12,984 nucleotides of DNA. It comes from a virus (taxonomy: Duplodnaviria > Heunggongvirae > Uroviricota > Caudoviricetes). Below the pieces are notes generated by a model, which saw only the letters and a program-made list of their open reading frames with translations, made no database searches and was not told the DNA's origin. Shown here in pieces: positions 7,363 to 12,984 of the stretch; position 1 is the stretch's first letter; the number at the start of each line of letters is the position of its first letter. Location: IMG/VR virus record IMGVR_UViG_2859799533_000002; one strand, written 5' to 3'. The position numbers and the translations under genes were made by a program.

Positions 7363-8147
7363 GTTGGAGTCATTACCGAAAATCTCAATGTATTCCCGTA
7401 TTACTGAGATGGCTTCATCCCGGTTATTAAAACGATAGTGGCTCAGGCTCTCATTTTTCAGCGTTCCCCAGAAGCTTTCCATCGGAGCGTTGTCGTAACA
7501 GTGACCTTTACGCGACATTGATGTTTTCAGACCAGACTGCTCCTGTATGACCCGGTAATCGTATGCGCAGTACTGTGAACCTCGATCAGAGTGGTGGATT
7601 AGCCCGGCAGGTGGGCGCTGGCTCCTGAGCGCCATAAACAGGGCTTTACCTGTCAGCTCTTTTGTCATGCGCTCTCCCATGGCGTAGCCGACAATTTCGC
7701 ACGTATAAACATCTTTGATGCCAGCGAGGTACAACCATCCCTCCTGTGTGGCAACATACGTCAGGTACGCCACCCAGACCTGATTTGGTGCTGTAGGAGC
7801 GAACGTCTGGTTCAGCAGATTTGGCGCAACTGGCAGATTGTGGTTCGGGTTCGTAGTCGCTCTGAACTTGCGTTTCTGCTTACAGCGTAGCCTTAGCTCC
7901 TTACGAAGACGTGCCAGTCGGTCACGACCAACGATGATGCCATTCTCTGCCAGCTCCGTCTGGAGCCGCCGGGTTCCATATGTTTCGCGAGTGCGGATAT
8001 GTGCCACCTTAATCTCCAGTTTTAGCCGCTCATCACTTTGTTTTCTGTCTGAGGGTTCATGCTGTACCCAGTTGTAATAACCGCTCCTGGATACACCAAA
8101 TACCTGACACATCGCTTCAATGGGAAATTGTTGTCGCCATTGTTCGA

Positions 8148-8450
8148 TTAACGCGTATTTTTCAGCGACTCCTGTGCAAAATACGCTGTTGCTTTTTTTA
8201 ATATATCTCGCTCAAGGCGAGCTTCATTTAACGCCTTACGCAGTTGCAGAATTTCAGATTCCAGTTCAGCCACCGTGCGGGAACCAGGAGTACCGAGCCC
8301 TTTTCTGGCGGCGGTAACCCATTGTCCTAAAGTGCCTTCAGGAAGGGATAATCGGGAAGCGCCTTCACTGATCGAAAGTTGATTTTCAAGAACCGTTCTG
8401 ACAGCTTCGGCTTTGAACTCTTTAGAGTAACGTTGGTTTTTTCTGCTCAT
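8148..8450 (-). CDS. IS600 OrfA (100 aa, helix-turn-helix)
   Basis: MSRKNQRYSKEFKAEAVRTVLENQLSISEGASRLSLPEGTLGQWV...; identical to the OrfA of the second IS600 copy at 12682-12984. Confidence 0.85.
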   Translation of the reverse strand: MSRKNQRYSKEFKAEAVRTVLENQLSISEGASRLSLPEGTLGQWVTAARKGLGTPGSRTVAELESEILQLRKALNEARLERDILKKATAYFAQESLKNTR

Positions 8451-8638
8451 TATTAGCTCCTTCTGATGCCATTCTATTTCAGGAAGGAGTGTCCGTTAAA
8501 CTCAGGCTACCTCATATGTCGGGCGCTCATCCGGTATAAGGGATCGCGTTCTTAATATCAATGAAACCGCTGATGTATGGTCTGGTAATGCTGCCAACTT
8601 ACTGATTTAGTGTATGATGGTGTTTTTGAGGTGCTCCA

Positions 8639-8914
8639 GTGGCTTCTGTTTCTATCAGCTGTCCCTCCTGTTCAGCTACTGACGGGGTGGTGCGTAACGG
8701 CAAAAGCACTGCCGGACATCAGCGCTATCTCTGCTCTCACTGCCGTAAAACATGGCAACTGCAGTTCACTTACACCGCTTCTCAACCCGGTACGCACCAG
8801 AAAATTATTGATATGGCCATGAATGGCGTTGGATGCCGGGCAACTGCACGCATTATGGGCGTTAGCCTCAACACGATTTTACGTCACTTAAAAAACTCAG
8901 GCCGCAGTCGGTAA
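8639..8914 (+). CDS. insA: IS1 InsA (canonical isoform)
   Basis: [40 protein letters not shown]...; identical to InsA at 9836-10111. Confidence 0.9.
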
Positions 8915-8940
8915 CCTCGCGCATACAACCGGGCAGTGAT

Positions 8941-9336
8941 GTGATTGTCTGCGCTGAAATGGACGAACAGTGGGGCTACGTCGGTGCTAAATCACGTCAG
9001 CGCTGGCTGTTTTACGCGTATGACAGGATACGGAGGACGGTTGTGGCGCACGTCTTCGGTGAACGCACTCTGGCCACACTGGAGCGTCTTCTGAGCCTGC
9101 TGTCGGCCTTTGAGGTCGTGGTATGGATGACGGATGGCTGGCCGCTGTATGAATCACGCCTGAAGGGAAAGCTGCACGTTATCAGCAAGCGTTACACTCA
9201 GCGCATTGAGCGACATAATCTGAATCTGAGACAACATCTGGCAAGGCTGGGACGGAAGTCACTGTCGTTCTCAAAATCGGTGGAGCTGCATGACAAGGTC
9301 ATCGGGCATTATCTGAACATAAAACACTATCAGTAA
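8941..9336 (+). CDS. insB: IS1 InsB frame (InsAB' by frameshift)
   Basis: InsB homolog; the ORF-track start is downstream of the frameshift site, as expected for an InsAB' fusion. Confidence 0.85.
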
Positions 9337-9835
9337 GTTGGAGTCATTACCGTATGGTCTTATGCTTACGGTAATAATTTGCTAACTCTGTCATCAATAT
9401 ATAACCGAAGAATAATGGTTATCTGCCTGGTGTTTGGTTGCCGACAGCAGGAGGCGAGGCTATCCACCTGGGACGAATGGGATTTAAAAAACTGGGTATG
9501 GACAGTCCCAAAAGAGCACAGCAAAAACAAGGAGGCTATAGTAAGGCCTGTTCCTGACGGAATAAAACAATGGATCGTTAATCTTTACGCAGAAACAAAA
9601 AATCGCGGTTATGTTGTCGGTTGTGCTTTGCAAAGGGCGACAATAACAGGGGCTGCAAACAGAATATGCAGGCGTCTTGGTCATGATACTAATGGCTTGT
9701 GGTGCATACATGATTTCAGGCGCACATTTTCCACTACGCTTAATGATATGGGGGCGGATCCTTATATTGTCGAACTTCTTGGTGATGCTGCCAACTTACT
9801 GATTTAGTGTATGATGGTGTTTTTGAGGTGCTCCA

Positions 9836-10111
9836 GTGGCTTCTGTTTCTATCAGCTGTCCCTCCTGTTCAGCTACTGACGGGGTGGTGCGTAACGGCAA
9901 AAGCACTGCCGGACATCAGCGCTATCTCTGCTCTCACTGCCGTAAAACATGGCAACTGCAGTTCACTTACACCGCTTCTCAACCCGGTACGCACCAGAAA
10001 ATTATTGATATGGCCATGAATGGCGTTGGATGCCGGGCAACTGCACGCATTATGGGCGTTAGCCTCAACACGATTTTACGTCACTTAAAAAACTCAGGCC
10101 GCAGTCGGTAA
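9836..10111 (+). CDS. insA: IS1 InsA
   Basis: 91 aa, canonical InsA sequence. Confidence 0.9.
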
Positions 10112-10155
10112 CCTCGCGCATACAGCCGGGCAGTGACGTCATCGTCTGCGCGGAA

Positions 10156-10533
10156 ATGGACGAACAGTGGGGATACGTCGGGGCTAAATCGCGCCAGCGC
10201 TGGCTGTTTTACGCGTATGACAGGCTCCGGAAGACGGTTGTTGCGCACGTATTCGGTGAACGCACTATGGCGACGCTGGGGCGTCTTATGAGCTTGCTGT
10301 CACCCTTTGACGTGGTGATATGGATGACGGATGGCTGGCCACTGTATGAATCCCGCCTGAAGGGAAAGCTGCACGTAATCAGCAAGCGATATACGCAGCG
10401 AATTGAGCGGCATAACCTGAATCTGAGGCAGCACCTGGCACGGCTGGGACGGAAGTCGCTGTCGTTCTCAAAATCGGTGGAGCTGCATGACAAAGTCATC
10501 GGGCATTATCTGAACATAAAACACTATCAATAA
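10156..10533 (+). CDS. insB: IS1 InsB frame (InsAB' by frameshift)
   Basis: Canonical InsB sequence (..[39 protein letters not shown]..). Confidence 0.85.
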
Positions 10534-10711
10534 GTTGGAGTCATTACCGAACTTCTTTTAGGTCATAAAGTGAAAGGGGTTGCTGGTGTTTACAATAAAA
10601 GCAGGCATATAAAGAAAAAACTTGAGGTGCTTAATATGTGGGTTAATTACCTTAATACGATAGCAGGATTTAACAACAACGTTATCGAGCTTAATAAAGA
10701 GGTGGTGTGAT

Positions 10712-10969
10712 ATGGCAATTTATTCTCTTGTTGATGAAAACGATTTGCGCACAATGAAGGACATTGATCGGTTCATTCGTGAAAAAGAGTGCATAGCACT
10801 TACCACGCTGGCAAACTCAACACGCTGGAAAATGGAGCAGGCAGGTAAATTCCCGCGACGTATCAAGATCGGTGAACGTGCTGCAGGGTATCGACTTTCA
10901 GAGGTTCAGGCATGGATCCGTGGTGAGTGGCATCCTGGATGGAAACCTGGAAAAACAAAACAGCAATAA
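10712..10969 (+). CDS. alpA: AlpA-family phage transcriptional regulator / excisionase-like HTH protein
   Basis: 85 aa; ...LTTLANSTRWKMEQAGKFPRRIKIGERAAGYRLSEVQAWIRG matches the AlpA pattern (short HTH, GKFP, basic, W-R-x-SEV-x-AW); GAGG ribosome-binding site; starts 1 bp after the integrase stop. Confidence 0.8.
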   Translation: MAIYSLVDENDLRTMKDIDRFIREKECIALTTLANSTRWKMEQAGKFPRRIKIGERAAGYRLSEVQAWIRGEWHPGWKPGKTKQQ

Positions 10970-10982
10970 CCAGTAAATAATG

Positions 10983-11005
10983 CCCCTCATCACGAGGGGT
11001 TTTTT
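10983..11005 (+). terminator. Intrinsic terminator after alpA
   Basis: CCCCTC-ATCAC-GAGGGG hairpin followed by TTTTTTGTCT. Confidence 0.6.
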
Positions 11006-11025
11006 GTCTATAAGGTAAAAACGCG

Positions 11026-11604
11026 ATGAATAAAAATATTGCCGTGACGGGCAAGGGGTACGCTCGTCCAGTGAAAAAATTCTGCGATATTCGTGATCTC
11101 GTCGTTCTGCGCTTTGATAGTGTGAACGTTCGTGTGGTGTATCTGAACGGCGATCCGTGGTTTGTTGCAAAAGATGTTTGTGCTGCGCTGGAACTAACCA
11201 ATTCGCGTACGGCGTTGCAGATGCTTGATGATGATGAAAAGGGAGTAAATTTAACTTACACCCCAGGAGGAAATCAGAATATGAGAATTATCTCTGAGTC
11301 AGGTTTCTACAAACTAATAGCCCGCAGCCGCAAAGCAACGACGCCTGGCATATTTGCTCATCGTTTCAGTAACTGGGTATTCAGAAATGTGATACCAGGT
11401 ATCAGAAAAACGGGGACTTATGGTATCCCGTGGGGTGCATTACAGGATTTTTCCCGCCGTAAAGAGCAATATCAAATAAGTGCCAGCGAGAAGGGGAGGG
11501 AGCTACAGGCATGTAAGCGCAAAAAGCGTGAGCAGGAGGAAGAAGAAAAAACGCTGATACGTGAATATCAGCCTGAGTTTTACTTTGGTAACCGCATTCA
11601 GTGA
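11026..11604 (+). CDS. BRO-N domain protein (prophage antirepressor-like)
   Basis: 192 aa; N-terminal ...VVYLNGDPWFVAKDVCAALELTN...DDDEKG...IISESGFYKLIARSRKATTPGIFAHRFSNWVFRNVIPGIRKTGTY matches the BRO-N pattern; charged, Glu-rich C-terminus. Confidence 0.8.
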   Translation: MNKNIAVTGKGYARPVKKFCDIRDLVVLRFDSVNVRVVYLNGDPWFVAKDVCAALELTNSRTALQMLDDDEKGVNLTYTPGGNQNMRIISESGFYKLIARSRKATTPGIFAHRFSNWVFRNVIPGIRKTGTYGIPWGALQDFSRRKEQYQISASEKGRELQACKRKKREQEEEEKTLIREYQPEFYFGNRIQ

Positions 11605-11613
11605 CAAAACAAA

Positions 11614-11634
11614 GGCGACCGCAAAAGGGTCGCC
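11614..11634 (-). terminator. Putative intrinsic terminator for the leftward two-gene operon
   Basis: GGCGACC-GCAAAAG-GGTCGCC hairpin; on the minus strand it is followed by TTTGTTTTGT; 67 bp downstream of the 59-aa ORF stop. Confidence 0.5.
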
Positions 11635-11700
11635 AGTGGGAACAAGGGAAAACAAAAGCATCACCAACAATGCCACATTTGCGGCTGGTGGGCAATGTGA

Positions 11701-11880
11701 TCAGTCAGATTTGGTTCGTTCCAAGGTTTGCAACGAGAGCTTTTTCCTGTGCTCTTTAAGGAATTTCTCAAGAGCAAACGAACAAGGTGCGAATCTTTCT
11801 GATTCATGTTCATGCGCTATATTTTTGCGTCGTCTCTTACGAGTTGGTGATGGTGTTTTGGTTGATTCTGTGTCGCTCAT
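11701..11880 (-). CDS. Hypothetical 59-aa basic protein (not in the supplied ORF track)
   Basis: Hand translation of the reverse complement: MSDTESTKTPSPTRKRRRKNIAHEHESERFAPCSFALEKFLKEHRKKLSLQTLERTKSD*; ATG at 11878-11880, TGA at 11701-11703; AGGA about 9 nt upstream; 57 bp downstream of and co-oriented with the RHH-like gene; followed by the terminator at 11614-11634. Confidence 0.5.
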   Translation of the reverse strand: MSDTESTKTPSPTRKRRRKNIAHEHESERFAPCSFALEKFLKEHRKKLSLQTLERTKSD

Positions 11881-11937
11881 GGTGCTGTCCTGTAAAGCAA
11901 TGCGCCTGCGTTCCTCAAACTATGGCGCTGATATTGG

Positions 11938-12243
11938 CTATTCATGCTCTTTGACCTTGCGTCGCTGGAGTTCTTCACGCGCGACGGTGACGAGTTGCCC
12001 GATCTCCTCGGCTGCTTTGATGCCGATTTGTTCGACCTTAGCCAGGGCATCCAGTGACGACACAAGGGGATTTTCTCCGCTGCCTTCTGCTTGGCGGCGG
12101 GCCATTTCTCCGCGCATGGCGGTTACGATAAATCCGGCATTGCTTTCACCGTCCAGCTTAACGGATTCCATCCCTTGCATAACATCTAGTGGGACTCTGA
12201 CAGTTGTCAGTTGTGATTTTGCGTTTTTGTTAGCCGTTGCCAT
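11938..12243 (-). CDS. Putative ribbon-helix-helix (Arc/CopG-like) DNA-binding protein with C-terminal extension
   Basis: 101 aa; AGGAG ribosome-binding site 8 nt before the ATG; N-terminal TTVRVPLDVMQGMESVKLDGESNAGFIVTAMRGEMARR fits the strand-helix-helix pattern (compare Arc ...NGRSVNSEIYQRVM). Fold assignment is by pattern only. Confidence 0.55.
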   Translation of the reverse strand: MATANKNAKSQLTTVRVPLDVMQGMESVKLDGESNAGFIVTAMRGEMARRQAEGSGENPLVSSLDALAKVEQIGIKAAEEIGQLVTVAREELQRRKVKEHE

Positions 12244-12304
12244 TTCTGAAACTCCTAATCATCGGTGTGTTTCAGTATACACAAAAAAAGAAATACAAAA
12301 AGCC

Positions 12305-12342
12305 TTGACGTGTGTTTCATGCGCTCATAACATGAAACACAC
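12305..12342 (+). promoter_or_regulatory. Rightward sigma70-like promoter overlapped by a perfect 12-bp inverted-repeat operator
   Basis: TTGACG (12305-12310), 17-bp spacer, TAACAT (12328-12333); inverted repeat GTGTGTTTCATG (12310-12321) / CATGAAACACAC (12331-12342) with 9-bp spacer; a further GTGTGTTTCA half-site at 12265-12274; direct repeat GAAATACAAA at 12290-12299 and 12356-12365. Confidence 0.5.
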
Positions 12343-12433
12343 CGAAAGGATTGTTGAAATACAAAGAGCAACGCCCCGCAGTGCTGGGAACACATACGGG
12401 GCGTCTAACCAACAACGTAAACTAGGAGCCGTT

Positions 12434-12625
12434 ATGGTTGCTGTAAATCATATACCACACCTTGTACACACACAAACGGCCTTTGTGTGGCGTTTTCTGG
12501 CACTGAGTGCCGGAGAATCTCAAATCATCCACGTAACCGCCTGGACGGAACGCGAAGCGCGTAGCCGTTGCCCGTCCGGTTGTGTTGCTGTATTCGCTGC
12601 AAAAATCCGCCAGGGAGTGAGGTAG
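12434..12625 (+). CDS. Small rightward ORF of unknown function; native C-terminus replaced by IS600 after codon 61
   Basis: AGGAG 5 nt upstream of the ATG at 12434; MVAVNHIPHLVHTQTAFVWRFLALSAGESQIIHVTAWTEREARSRCPSGCVAVFAAKIRQG then VR* supplied by the IS600 terminus at 12618; it is the only well-initiated part of the otherwise implausible 354-aa ORF-track ORF. Confidence 0.35.
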   Translation: MVAVNHIPHLVHTQTAFVWRFLALSAGESQIIHVTAWTEREARSRCPSGCVAVFAAKIRQGVR

Positions 12626-12984
12626 CCTGAGTTTAACGGACACTCCTTCCTGAAATAGAATGGCATCAGAAGGAGCTAATAATGAGCAGAAAAAACCAAC
12701 GTTACTCTAAAGAGTTCAAAGCCGAAGCTGTCAGAACGGTTCTTGAAAATCAACTTTCGATCAGTGAAGGCGCTTCCCGATTATCCCTTCCTGAAGGCAC
12801 TTTAGGACAATGGGTTACCGCCGCCAGAAAAGGGCTCGGTACTCCTGGTTCCCGCACGGTGGCTGAACTGGAATCTGAAATTCTGCAACTGCGTAAGGCG
12901 TTAAATGAAGCTCGCCTTGAGCGAGATATATTAAAAAAAGCAACAGCGTATTTTGCACAGGAGTCGCTGAAAAATACGCGTTAA
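12618..12984 (+). mobile_element. IS600 second copy, left end (continues beyond the window)
   Basis: TGAGGTAGCCTGAGTTTAACGGACACTCCTTCCTGAAATAGAATGGCATCAGAAGGAGCTAATAATG is the reverse complement of the 8450-8514 terminus of the first copy. Confidence 0.9.
12682..12984 (+). CDS. IS600 OrfA (100 aa)
   Basis: Identical protein to the ORF at 8148-8450; its stop codon is the last triplet of the window. Confidence 0.9.
   Translation: MSRKNQRYSKEFKAEAVRTVLENQLSISEGASRLSLPEGTLGQWVTAARKGLGTPGSRTVAELESEILQLRKALNEARLERDILKKATAYFAQESLKNTR

Follow-up and report, generated by a model that had tools for sequence, protein, structure and literature searches.

An integrase gene in pieces, followed on the same strand by intact alpA and BRO-N genes, raises the question of which mobile element these genes once served, and whether any of them may still act in the present host. 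The cluster lies in the window, i.e., the whole stretch of 12,984 nucleotides that was analysed. The initial annotation had placed int, alpA and the BRO-N gene on the + strand at 10549-11604, and had considered alpA and BRO-N as intact and the integrase as destroyed. All of this holds: both open reading frames are intact, the integrase has been destroyed by an IS600 truncation and two IS1 insertions, and owing to the strong domain matches and the near-identity to annotated genomes, chance is ruled out as a concern. The features of the remnant and its borders are listed below in window coordinates, L001 being the locus of an intact relative from E. coli APEC O2-211.

7380-8514, - strand: left IS600, named 'IS3-like element IS600 family transposase' in RefSeq under 99.5% matches; orfA at 8148-8450
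8515-8583, + strand: int fragment from codon 201, a 100% match to L001 15522-15590 (L001 int start at 14922)
8584-9351, + strand: IS1a, inside int; target duplication GTATGGTCT at 8575-8583 and 9352-9360
9352-9780, + strand: middle int fragment with the catalytic domain, 99.8% identical to L001 15582-16010
9781-10548, + strand: IS1b, inside int; target duplication GAACTTCTT at 9772-9780 and 10549-10557
10549-10710, + strand: 3' end of int, last 53 codons, collinear with L001 16002-16163
10712-10969, + strand: alpA, an AlpA-family winged-helix regulator or excisionase (PF05930, 5.4e-14; phrog_2790); protein 100% identical to RefSeq WP_001029461.1
10982-11006, + strand: intrinsic-terminator-like hairpin and T-run between alpA and the BRO-N gene
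11026-11604, + strand: BRO-N domain gene, 192 aa (PF02498, 4.4e-20; phrog_2593 'anti-repressor', 2e-84)
11614-11634, - strand: terminator-like hairpin closing the leftward RHH-orf59 transcript
11701-11880, - strand: orf59, small and conserved, next after the RHH gene in the direction of transcription, 68% identical to EcCICFT073 WP_000130015.1 in the same position
11938-12243, - strand: YlcI/YnfO-family ribbon-helix-helix (RHH) gene, transcribed away from the early operon
12262-12345, no strand assigned: switch region with three GTGTGTTTCA copies (12265 +, 12310 + and 12333 -)
12372-12403, + strand: conserved two-tier hairpin in the early-operon leader, followed by the conserved stretch CTCTAACCA
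12434-12625, + strand: Icd-like gene, first of the early (replication) operon (NCBIfam NF033153, 1.1e-17)
12618-12984, + strand: right IS600, inverted with respect to the left copy and with an identical orfA; it removes the rest of the satellite

The remnant is very probably the left-hand control region of a helper-embedded phage-inducible chromosomal island (HE-PICI) of the B:Phage_portal_2:241 group, decayed in an IS-rich genome of the Shigella type. The segment 10548-12621 is 99.9% identical to the 10.9-kb element of APEC O2-211, and all 2,553 bp of the non-IS remnant, including 8515-8583 and 9352-9780, match this element at 99.8-100% nucleotide identity, the window copy differing from it by three amino-acid substitutions. 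The APEC O2-211 element is listed as the HE-PICI Eco4623.11.B_Phage_portal_2_241, at CP006834.2:1830842-1841738, in the supplement of Tommasini, Mageeney and Williams 2023 (PMC10111431). It measures 10.9 kb, splits the portal gene of a lambdoid prophage, with AAGGCGAT at both flanks, and carries four zones, namely int/alpA (Integration), Bro, Replication and Late. Of these, the window retains a damaged Integration zone and the Bro zone, together with the gene that opens the early operon; the Replication and Late zones are absent. By identity comparison, its int fragments match that of the listed B:Phage_portal_2:241 HE-PICI at 99.8-100%. Elements of this kind are already catalogued as helper-embedded PICIs, whose usual site is the portal gene of a lambda-like prophage, and the find is in this respect an ordinary one.

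The doubled motif TGTATTGCnnnnTGTATTGC, reported as unique to HE-PICIs and as present on both attP arms (PMC10111431), occurs exactly twice in L001, once in the left arm (14852) and once in the right arm (25517), and none of 100 shuffles gave two matches. The window contains no match to it, even at three mismatches, because both ends of the element have been deleted, which corresponds to truncation and not to divergence. Both flanks of the remnant consist of IS600, and no portal sequence or att site is left. To judge from the near-identity and from the order and co-orientation with lambdoid late-region remnants, the window copy would also have been embedded in a helper: the methylase, tRNAs and nanS-like esterase found at 3150-6493 have an order and orientation compatible with embedding. 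A lambda-type int also occurs in the window, at 1-1119.

Only codons 201-413 of the integrase are kept, codons 1-200 and attL having disappeared at the IS600 end (8514/8515), and two IS1 copies, each with a 9-bp target duplication, split the remaining part; the IS junctions and target duplications were read directly from the sequence. The far end of the left IS600 is cut by another IS1, and its orfA-proximal inverted repeat ends at 8514, where it adjoins the first int fragment. On the other side, 10549 is the first base past IS1b and 10549-10557 corresponds to the right GAACTTCTT copy. The upstream int piece read at 9379-9807 still matches PF00589 (1.3e-11), and the sole difference of 9352-9780 from L001 is synonymous. 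Since the att sites, the primase and the capsid and terS genes have been lost, the element is immobile; with half of int, the two att sites and every replication and late gene missing, it is incapable of excision, replication and packaging. Among the sister strains, IS1b is present in all, and IS1a is absent from L003 and L005-L007.

The intact element is a 10.9-kb satellite which inserts into a lambdoid prophage, at the portal gene and in the orientation of the late operon. Its left end consists of int and a translationally coupled alpA coding for an excisionase/activator, followed by a variable BRO-N gene and then by RHH and orf59 in leftward orientation. The early promoter, covered by operators, drives the icd-like gene, several small genes, DUF4222, a D5-type primase and SSB, and the late zone comprises a lambda E-like capsid, a D-like decoration protein, another AlpA-like gene and a small terminase of the Nu1 type. 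By analogy with the published work on 11capE and EcCICFT073, induction of the helper would bring late transcription into the satellite, AlpA and Int would then excise it and restore the portal gene, AlpA would activate the satellite genes, the primase would replicate the satellite and helper virions would package it. In the HE-PICI 11capE, excision comes after helper replication (PMC10111431).

Compared to Eco4623.11.B_Phage_portal_2_241, the window shows the same genes in the same order, i.e., int, alpA, BRO-N, orf59/RHH, early promoter and icd-like gene, but lacks int codons 1-200, attL, attR and both doubled TGTATTGC motifs, together with all that lies beyond the end of icd (the small ORFs, DUF4222, primase, SSB, capsid, decoration, second AlpA and terS), and has acquired two IS1 insertions and inverted IS600 copies as boundaries. 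In 11capE (Eco567.11.E_Phage_cap_E_80, E. coli NRG857c), the type HE-PICI, alpA likewise starts one base after int, and protein identities amount to 54% for int, 67% for AlpA, 88% for RHH and 99% for the capsid, with only 43% for the primase. The same leader hairpin and an operator-rich switch are found there, whereas the half-sites differ (GTATATCAC type), integration takes place in the capsid E gene and not in the portal gene, and the Bro zone is devoid of BRO-N, its place being taken by an unrelated gene of 178 aa that points leftward.

A comparison with Gram-negative PICI genomes, as suggested by the initial annotation, reveals the same gene order as in the experimentally studied EcCICFT073 (Fillol-Salom et al. 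2018, PMC6092414), which serves as the model among Gram-negative PICIs: int, alpA, Bro zone, leftward orf57/RHH, icd-like, DUF4222, primase, SSB, capsid and decoration. Protein identities to EcCICFT073 are 40% for int, 60% for AlpA, 68% for orf59 and 98% for the primase. The AlpA of EcCICFT073, which is switched on by the helper, is needed for induction and activates its own promoter and downstream genes (PMC6092414). In contrast, EcCICFT073 is inserted in the chromosome near roxA instead of in a prophage, its alpA is preceded by a 365-bp upstream region and a promoter of its own, only a fragment of ~105 bp is left of its BRO-N gene, its RHH protein of 59 aa is devoid of the C-terminal extension, and its operators are of the GTGGGCCACACC type. 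Gram-negative PICIs have been defined by int and alpA at one end, pri-rep, packaging/capsid genes, a size of ~10-15 kb and a specific att (Fillol-Salom et al. 2018); among these features, the window possesses a broken int and alpA, and the primase, capsid/terS and att occur only in the intact relative. Gram-negative PICIs are further characterised by induction, excision, replication and transfer under the control of a helper phage, none of which the window copy could perform by itself, as it is devoid of a complete int, att and primase.

That these genes are simply part of an ordinary lambdoid prophage, e.g., an integration/immunity region with an Ant-type anti-repressor and no separate element, is extremely unlikely. 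Prophage remnants indeed surround them in the window (the lambda-type int, methylase, tRNAs and nanS-like esterase), Bro-N relatives annotated as anti-repressors occur in many temperate phages, and YlcI/YnfO proteins are known from lambdoid prophages too; however, the intact relatives are discrete 10.9-kb inserts which split the portal gene and possess their own att repeats. The initial annotation had named an exclusively lambdoid context as the observation that would speak against a satellite; homology searches find the relatives in lambdoid prophages, yet as discrete satellites with their own att, primase, capsid and terS. The int faces inward and is followed by AlpA, an arrangement which occurs in 462 of 476 satellites, as compared to 1 of 169 prophages (PMC10111431). 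In addition, none of 50,697 phage records contains an integrase relative above 60% identity, and a DNA search of phage records with the region gave no long match, only the Bro-N domain part being matched at 68-77% identity. It is also very unlikely that the remnant derives from a P4-like, P2-dependent satellite with sid, psu, delta, epsilon and alpha, in spite of the resemblance: P4 belongs to the same broad tyrosine integrase clade and possesses an AlpA-family Vis, a Kil/Icd-like first early gene and a D5-type primase, as does this satellite type. HE-PICI integrases fall in a larger clade that includes P4 (Tommasini et al., PMC10111431), but the homology between PICIs and P4 has been argued to be distant and confined to Int, AlpA and Pri (Fillol-Salom et al., PMC6092414). 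Moreover, the 99.9%-identical intact relative, located inside a lambdoid prophage, encodes a lambda E-type capsid, a D-type decoration protein and a Nu1-type terS, and Pfam and PHROGs detect no Psu, Ogr/Delta, Sid-type or other P4-specific domain in the window or in this relative. An Rfam search of 10540-12640 with E up to 5 returned chance-level snoRNA-type matches only, without any C4 or isrK-type immunity RNA. Unlike P4, this satellite type has no sid, psu, delta or epsilon, depends on a lambdoid helper instead of P2, and uses a lambda-type capsid and Nu1; membership of the P4 family is refuted by the gene content of the intact relative. The disabled P4/PICI-like core proposed at the outset is thus supported by the homology and can be narrowed: its PICI part agrees with the identity to a catalogued HE-PICI, and its P4 part is abandoned with the missing Psu, Ogr/Delta and Sid-type domains. 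The element is a PICI with a lambdoid helper, of the helper-embedded subclass and portal-site group, and not of the P4 type. The complete head module of capsid-forming PICIs (cf-PICIs; portal, protease, HK97-type capsid, connectors and large terminase) is absent from the intact relative, which has only the E-type capsid, D-type decoration and Nu1-type small terminase.

Another possibility concerns function: alpA and the BRO-N gene might form a domesticated regulatory module kept by the host, one or both proteins still being made and acting in trans on lambdoid prophages or incoming satellites, e.g., as an excisionase helper or an anti-repressor. This is rather improbable. In its favour, the window and five of the seven other loci returned (L003, L005-L007 and L009) retain both ORFs intact, one AlpA-like excisionase encoded by a PICI was shown to promote excision of its helper phage and not of the PICI itself (PMC11773190), and the upstream IS1 is co-oriented, which makes read-through transcription conceivable. 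Against domestication, L002 and L008 have lost 10550-11209, i.e., the 3' end of int, alpA and the first 61 BRO-N codons, by an IS1-adjacent deletion. In HE-PICIs alpA has no promoter of its own because it starts one base after int, as it does here one base past the int stop, and a strict consensus scan of 10540-11025 finds no sigma-70-like promoter upstream. Between alpA and bro lies a terminator, which is also the recombination break point of the two modules: in other E. coli genomes, the shared sequence that contains bro begins only at ~10996. The BRO-N gene is the variable cargo of the Bro zone, and the functional model EcCICFT073 does with its ~105-bp fragment. Compared to E. coli, the BRO-N protein shows two substitutions, T109I and L170Q, both non-synonymous at positions at least 90% conserved in an alignment of 16 close relatives, and the one difference of the RHH gene from its E. 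coli relative is non-synonymous as well. Owing to the sister deletions, the substitutions at conserved BRO-N sites and the lack of a promoter, any persisting function of AlpA or BRO-N is unproven and looks doubtful; the two genes are probably silent debris, intact ORFs cut off by IS1 from any recognisable promoter. The term 'antirepressor' is only an annotation label for the BRO-N protein, which consists of the Bro-N domain and a charged C-terminal helix; Pfam finds no further domain in it, and an AlphaFold2 model built with 16 close homologues reaches a mean pLDDT of only 40. An antiterminator role of AlpA was considered and dropped, a PDB search having matched only the AlpA-family structure 8c3t and not the Pseudomonas antiterminator AlpA.

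Further along this stump of an HE-PICI, the RHH/early-promoter/icd unit retains its own signals and may still be expressed. The RHH gene product, a protein of 101 aa and a candidate repressor of the switch, displays the N-terminal strand-helix-helix fold of the Arc/CopG/MetJ repressors; Pfam and PDB sequence searches with it gave nothing significant, and its C-terminal half shows a weak HhH-like match to Hef (E 0.04). Downstream of it, orf59 is annotated as a gene in L003. The promoter-like site previously proposed at 12305 is recovered by a scan as a rightward promoter, TTGACG-17 nt-TAACAT (12305-12333), bracketed and overlapped by the GTGTGTTTCA copies. All three operator half-sites vary in concert across related elements, and through them the RHH protein would hold the early promoter shut. 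To our knowledge, no master repressor has been identified in Gram-negative PICIs. Among the sister strains, every one has kept the block 11210-12621; in the window, IS600 has replaced the last three codons of the Icd-like gene as compared to the intact protein.

The leader hairpin of the early operon covaries across 16 diverged loci of the satellite group, and each of the 16 PICI/HE-PICI-type loci compared has it in its early operon. In the window, its two stems pair 12372-12378 with 12397-12403 and 12381-12383 with 12391-12393. Since the folding energy of the leader alone is ordinary (z = -0.73), the case for a leader structure is made by covariation. Rfam gives no match for this hairpin; at gathering thresholds the whole window contains only three tRNAs and STnc100, and the sole matches in eight related loci are tRNAs and, in a locus from Pseudomonas, a single int-alpA RNA. 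There is some chance, albeit a small one, that the block of orf59, RHH, operators/promoter, leader and icd is a working unit, either an addiction-like pair or a satellite-immunity module, with the leader hairpin as an undescribed cis-regulatory RNA. As an addiction system, the RHH repressor could silence an Icd-type division inhibitor; as an immunity module, the block could act on incoming PICIs whose operators have the same specificity, and shut their early promoter.

The practical value of these results resides in getting the annotation right: where int, alpA and BRO-N form a cluster in an IS-rich genome of the Shigella type, they can be taken for what is left of an HE-PICI, rather than for a relative of P4 or for the immunity region of a prophage. 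The locus also illustrates the route by which such satellites decay, through IS1 insertions, IS1-adjacent deletion, and IS600 truncation and inversion. For PICI biology, two usable leads emerge: the covarying leader hairpin, upstream of the icd-like gene and without an Rfam family, and the RHH gene with its three operator half-sites, which change in concert between elements and seem, together with this gene, to determine the specificity of the early switch.

The gene content of the window was established by ORF listing together with Pfam, PHROGs and NCBIfam scans, all of which bear out the integrase, AlpA and BRO-N genes that the initial annotation had placed at 10549-11604. The features from the terminator at 11614-11634 through the Icd-like gene are further parts of the same element:

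10549-10710, + strand: 3' end of int (tyrosine integrase, last 53 codons)
10712-10969, + strand: alpA (PF05930, 5.4e-14), starting 1 base past the int stop
10982-11000: hairpin with a T-run (terminator) between alpA and the BRO-N gene
11026-11604, + strand: BRO-N gene (PF02498, 4.4e-20; phrog_2593, 2e-84)
11614-11634, - strand: terminator
11701-11880, - strand: orf59, 59 codons
11938-12243, - strand: YlcI/YnfO-family ribbon-helix-helix (RHH) gene
12305-12333: promoter-like site TTGACG-17 nt-TAACAT
12434-12625, + strand: Icd-like gene (NF033153, 1.1e-17)

The remainder of the window consists of IS1, IS2 and IS600 copies interspersed with lambdoid prophage pieces. The product of orf59, unannotated in the RefSeq record of E. 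coli APEC O2-211, is 68% identical to the EcCICFT073 protein WP_000130015.1, encoded at the same position, and orf59 is probably a genuine small gene conserved in PICIs. In the RHH protein, the C-terminal half (residues about 58-90, LVSSLDALAKVEQIGIKAAEEIGQLV) shows a weak helix-hairpin-helix-like match to the HhH domain of the Hef nuclease (profile E 0.04).

A megablast search with 10534-12680 against complete E. coli genomes returned 55 genomes matching at a coverage of at least 80% and 99.9% identity. In APEC O2-211 (L001), the same genes form the left end of a 10.9-kb insert that interrupts a lambdoid prophage within its portal gene, with the repeat AAGGCGAT at both ends. Its genes are arranged in the order int, alpA, BRO-N, the RHH gene (reverse strand), icd-like, three small ORFs, DUF4222, a D5-type primase, a small ORF, SSB, a lambda E-type capsid, a D-type decoration protein, a second AlpA-like gene, a Nu1-type small terminase and a small ORF. 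Satellites integrated in the late genes of a lambdoid helper have been described as helper-embedded phage-inducible chromosomal islands (HE-PICIs), organized in four zones, Integration (int and AlpA), Bro, Replication and Late (Tommasini, Mageeney and Williams 2023, PMC10111431). The supplementary table of that study lists Eco4623.11.B_Phage_portal_2_241 (CP006834.2/1830842-1841738, identity block aaggcgat; PMC10111431), which corresponds to L001:14718-25614. The doubled motif TGTATTGCnnnnTGTATTGC, reported as unique to HE-PICI attP arms (PMC10111431), has exactly two occurrences in L001. The left one sits about 131 bp inside attL, and the right one about 74-93 bp away from attR, according to where the distance is measured from; two matches were not obtained in any of 100 shuffles.

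The initial annotation had proposed a disabled P4/PICI-like satellite and a comparison with P4-like and PICI genomes. That comparison supports the PICI part: the gene order of the L001 element is that of EcCICFT073, the model PICI of E. coli CFT073 (L026), and the relative is itself catalogued as an HE-PICI. The P4 part has to be abandoned, as neither P4-specific domains (Pfam, PHROGs) nor C4/isrK RNAs (Rfam) were found. An ordinary prophage module is likewise rejected, in view of the discrete portal-splitting insert, its HE-PICI listing and an integrase for which no relative above 60% identity occurs among 50,697 phage records. Taken together, the likeness to the reference elements, the integrase without close phage relatives and the lack of P4 features assign the window element, as judged from sequence comparison, to the PICI type, helper-embedded subclass, portal-site group. 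The family is already described and catalogued, and the window holds the dead stump of one member.

Protein identities with 11capE (type HE-PICI, L029) and EcCICFT073
int: 11capE 54%; EcCICFT073 40%
AlpA: 11capE 67%; EcCICFT073 60%
orf59: EcCICFT073 68%
RHH: 11capE 88%; EcCICFT073 53%
Icd-like: 11capE 49%; EcCICFT073 46%
primase: 11capE 43%; EcCICFT073 98%
capsid: 11capE 99%; EcCICFT073 55%

The RHH homologue of EcCICFT073 wholly misses the C-terminal extension of the window's protein, and its int and alpA are 365 bp apart, whereas HE-PICIs leave a 1-nt gap, so that their alpA relies on transcription that comes in through int or the late operon of the helper. In EcCICFT073, AlpA is indispensable for induction and transfer, activates its own promoter and the downstream genes, and is switched on by helper phages, not by SOS (PMC6092414). 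Excision of 11capE is precise and occurs once the helper/satellite composite has replicated (PMC10111431), and a PICI AlpA-like protein can promote helper excision (PMC11773190). The int-alpA RNA motif (RF02996) had no Rfam match in the window or the E. coli elements; it is found (49 bits) at 9280-9349 of a Pseudomonas lundensis contig (L024), a locus with the RHH/early-operon module.

In the BRO-N protein, the Bro-N domain is accompanied only by a charged helix at the C-terminus, and its "anti-repressor" name is an unconfirmed annotation. In L026, the space between alpA and the orf57/RHH genes holds a stretch of about 105 bp (9001-9105), unannotated and 92% identical to the middle of the window's BRO-N gene; it is a decayed Bro-zone gene inside a functional satellite. 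Since the gene is missing from 11capE and all 13 distant loci and fragmentary in EcCICFT073, it is to be regarded as accessory cargo of a variable Bro zone. In other genomes, the alpA/bro terminator marks the point at which alpA and bro modules are recombined.

The layout of the window copy was obtained by BLAST against L001 and direct reading of the junctions:

ending at 8514, - strand: left IS600
8515-8583: int codons 201-223
8584-9351: IS1a, target duplication GTATGGTCT
9352-9780: int, continued
9781-10548: IS1b, target duplication GAACTTCTT
starting at about 12618-12622, + strand: right IS600, replacing the last three icd codons

BLAST against L001 and a motif search found neither att site, neither doubled motif, no int codons 1-200 and nothing past icd. 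The integrase is indeed destroyed, as first noted, its codons 1-200 missing and the rest split by IS1a and IS1b; with the att sites and half of int gone, the element is disabled, and as read from what is left of it, neither excision nor replication nor packaging is possible for the window copy. GenBank CP026866.1 is 100% identical to the window, whose IS content is Shigella-like. Seven other loci were returned with the same IS600/icd junction; IS1b is common to all those keeping the relevant part, and two substitutions are common to all, so the damage goes back to the ancestor of a lineage. The copies have since diverged: compared with these seven, IS1a and T109I occur only in the window's strain. 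The inverted IS600 copies (7380-8514 and 12618-12984) bracket the remnant with their orfA-proximal ends inward, and in sister loci L005 and L007 the segment between them is flipped with respect to its cheA and nanS flanks, pointing to an IS600-mediated inversion.

The initial annotation had also suggested that regulatory functions may persist. For alpA and bro the answer leans to no, because an IS1-adjacent deletion in sister strains L002 and L008 removes window 10550-11209 (3' end of int, alpA and BRO-N codons 1-61, leaving a 107-aa BRO-N C-terminal ORF), a promoter scan found no promoter-like site in 10540-11025, IS1 lies directly upstream of the int 3' end/alpA/BRO-N segment, both BRO-N substitutions hit positions conserved to at least 90% among the 16 sequences of a family alignment, and the three coding changes carried by BRO-N and RHH are all non-synonymous, the single int change being synonymous. 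Insertions of IS1 are known to be polar. The orf59/RHH/promoter/icd block, present in every variant, still has its own signals; its expression is plausible.

Window 1-6600 carries IS-eroded lambdoid prophage remnants in the orientation of a late operon:

1-1119, - strand: lambda-type int
truncated xis-like ORF, cut by IS1
IS1 copy cut by IS2, within 1-6600
3150-4325: N6/N4 DNA methylase
4366-4615: tRNA-Met(CAT)/Arg/Arg
4692-4882: STnc100 sRNA match
5105-6493: nanS-like esterase (DUF1737+SASA), cut by IS1

No toxin gene occurs between the tRNAs and the nanS-like esterase of the window. These remnants may be the leftover of the satellite's former helper.

GTGTGTTTCA occurs three times in the interval (12262-12345) that separates the RHH gene from the divergent icd-like gene, twice direct and once inverted, one pair forming a 12-bp palindrome that spans the promoter spacer. 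The operator-like half-sites were compared at the homologous position in L010, L017, L026 and L029: GTGTAAG.. stands at each of the three positions in a Klebsiella PICI and in an Enterobacter soli locus, GTGGGCCACACC in EcCICFT073 and GTATATCAC in 11capE, while the -35 element, the TATACA box and their spacing are unchanged. Such a concerted change beside a divergent RHH gene looks like a repressor/operator specificity pair, in which the RHH protein would repress the early promoter and probably its own leftward promoter as well. The leader that runs from the early promoter to the icd-like start codon holds a two-tier hairpin (12372-12403), then the conserved stretch CTCTAACCA and lastly a small hairpin presenting the Shine-Dalgarno sequence (12417-12436), a structure found at the same position in L001, L010, L013-L024, L026 and L029. 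Its folding energy as a single sequence is unremarkable (z = -0.73), and no Rfam family matched the hairpin in the window, the region 10540-12640 or eight related loci. Sixteen diverged loci from Escherichia, Klebsiella, Enterobacter, Erwinia, Serratia, Xenorhabdus, Photorhabdus, Scandinavium, a Pseudomonas contig and others were aligned; with the structure derived from these same sequences, 88% of the cells are paired, as opposed to 26-45% after the partners are slid; both sides have changed in 10 of the 15 pairs, and none of 500 shuffles reached the observed covariation, which is strong. The covarying operators and the motif in the leader both represent modest leads for PICI regulation.
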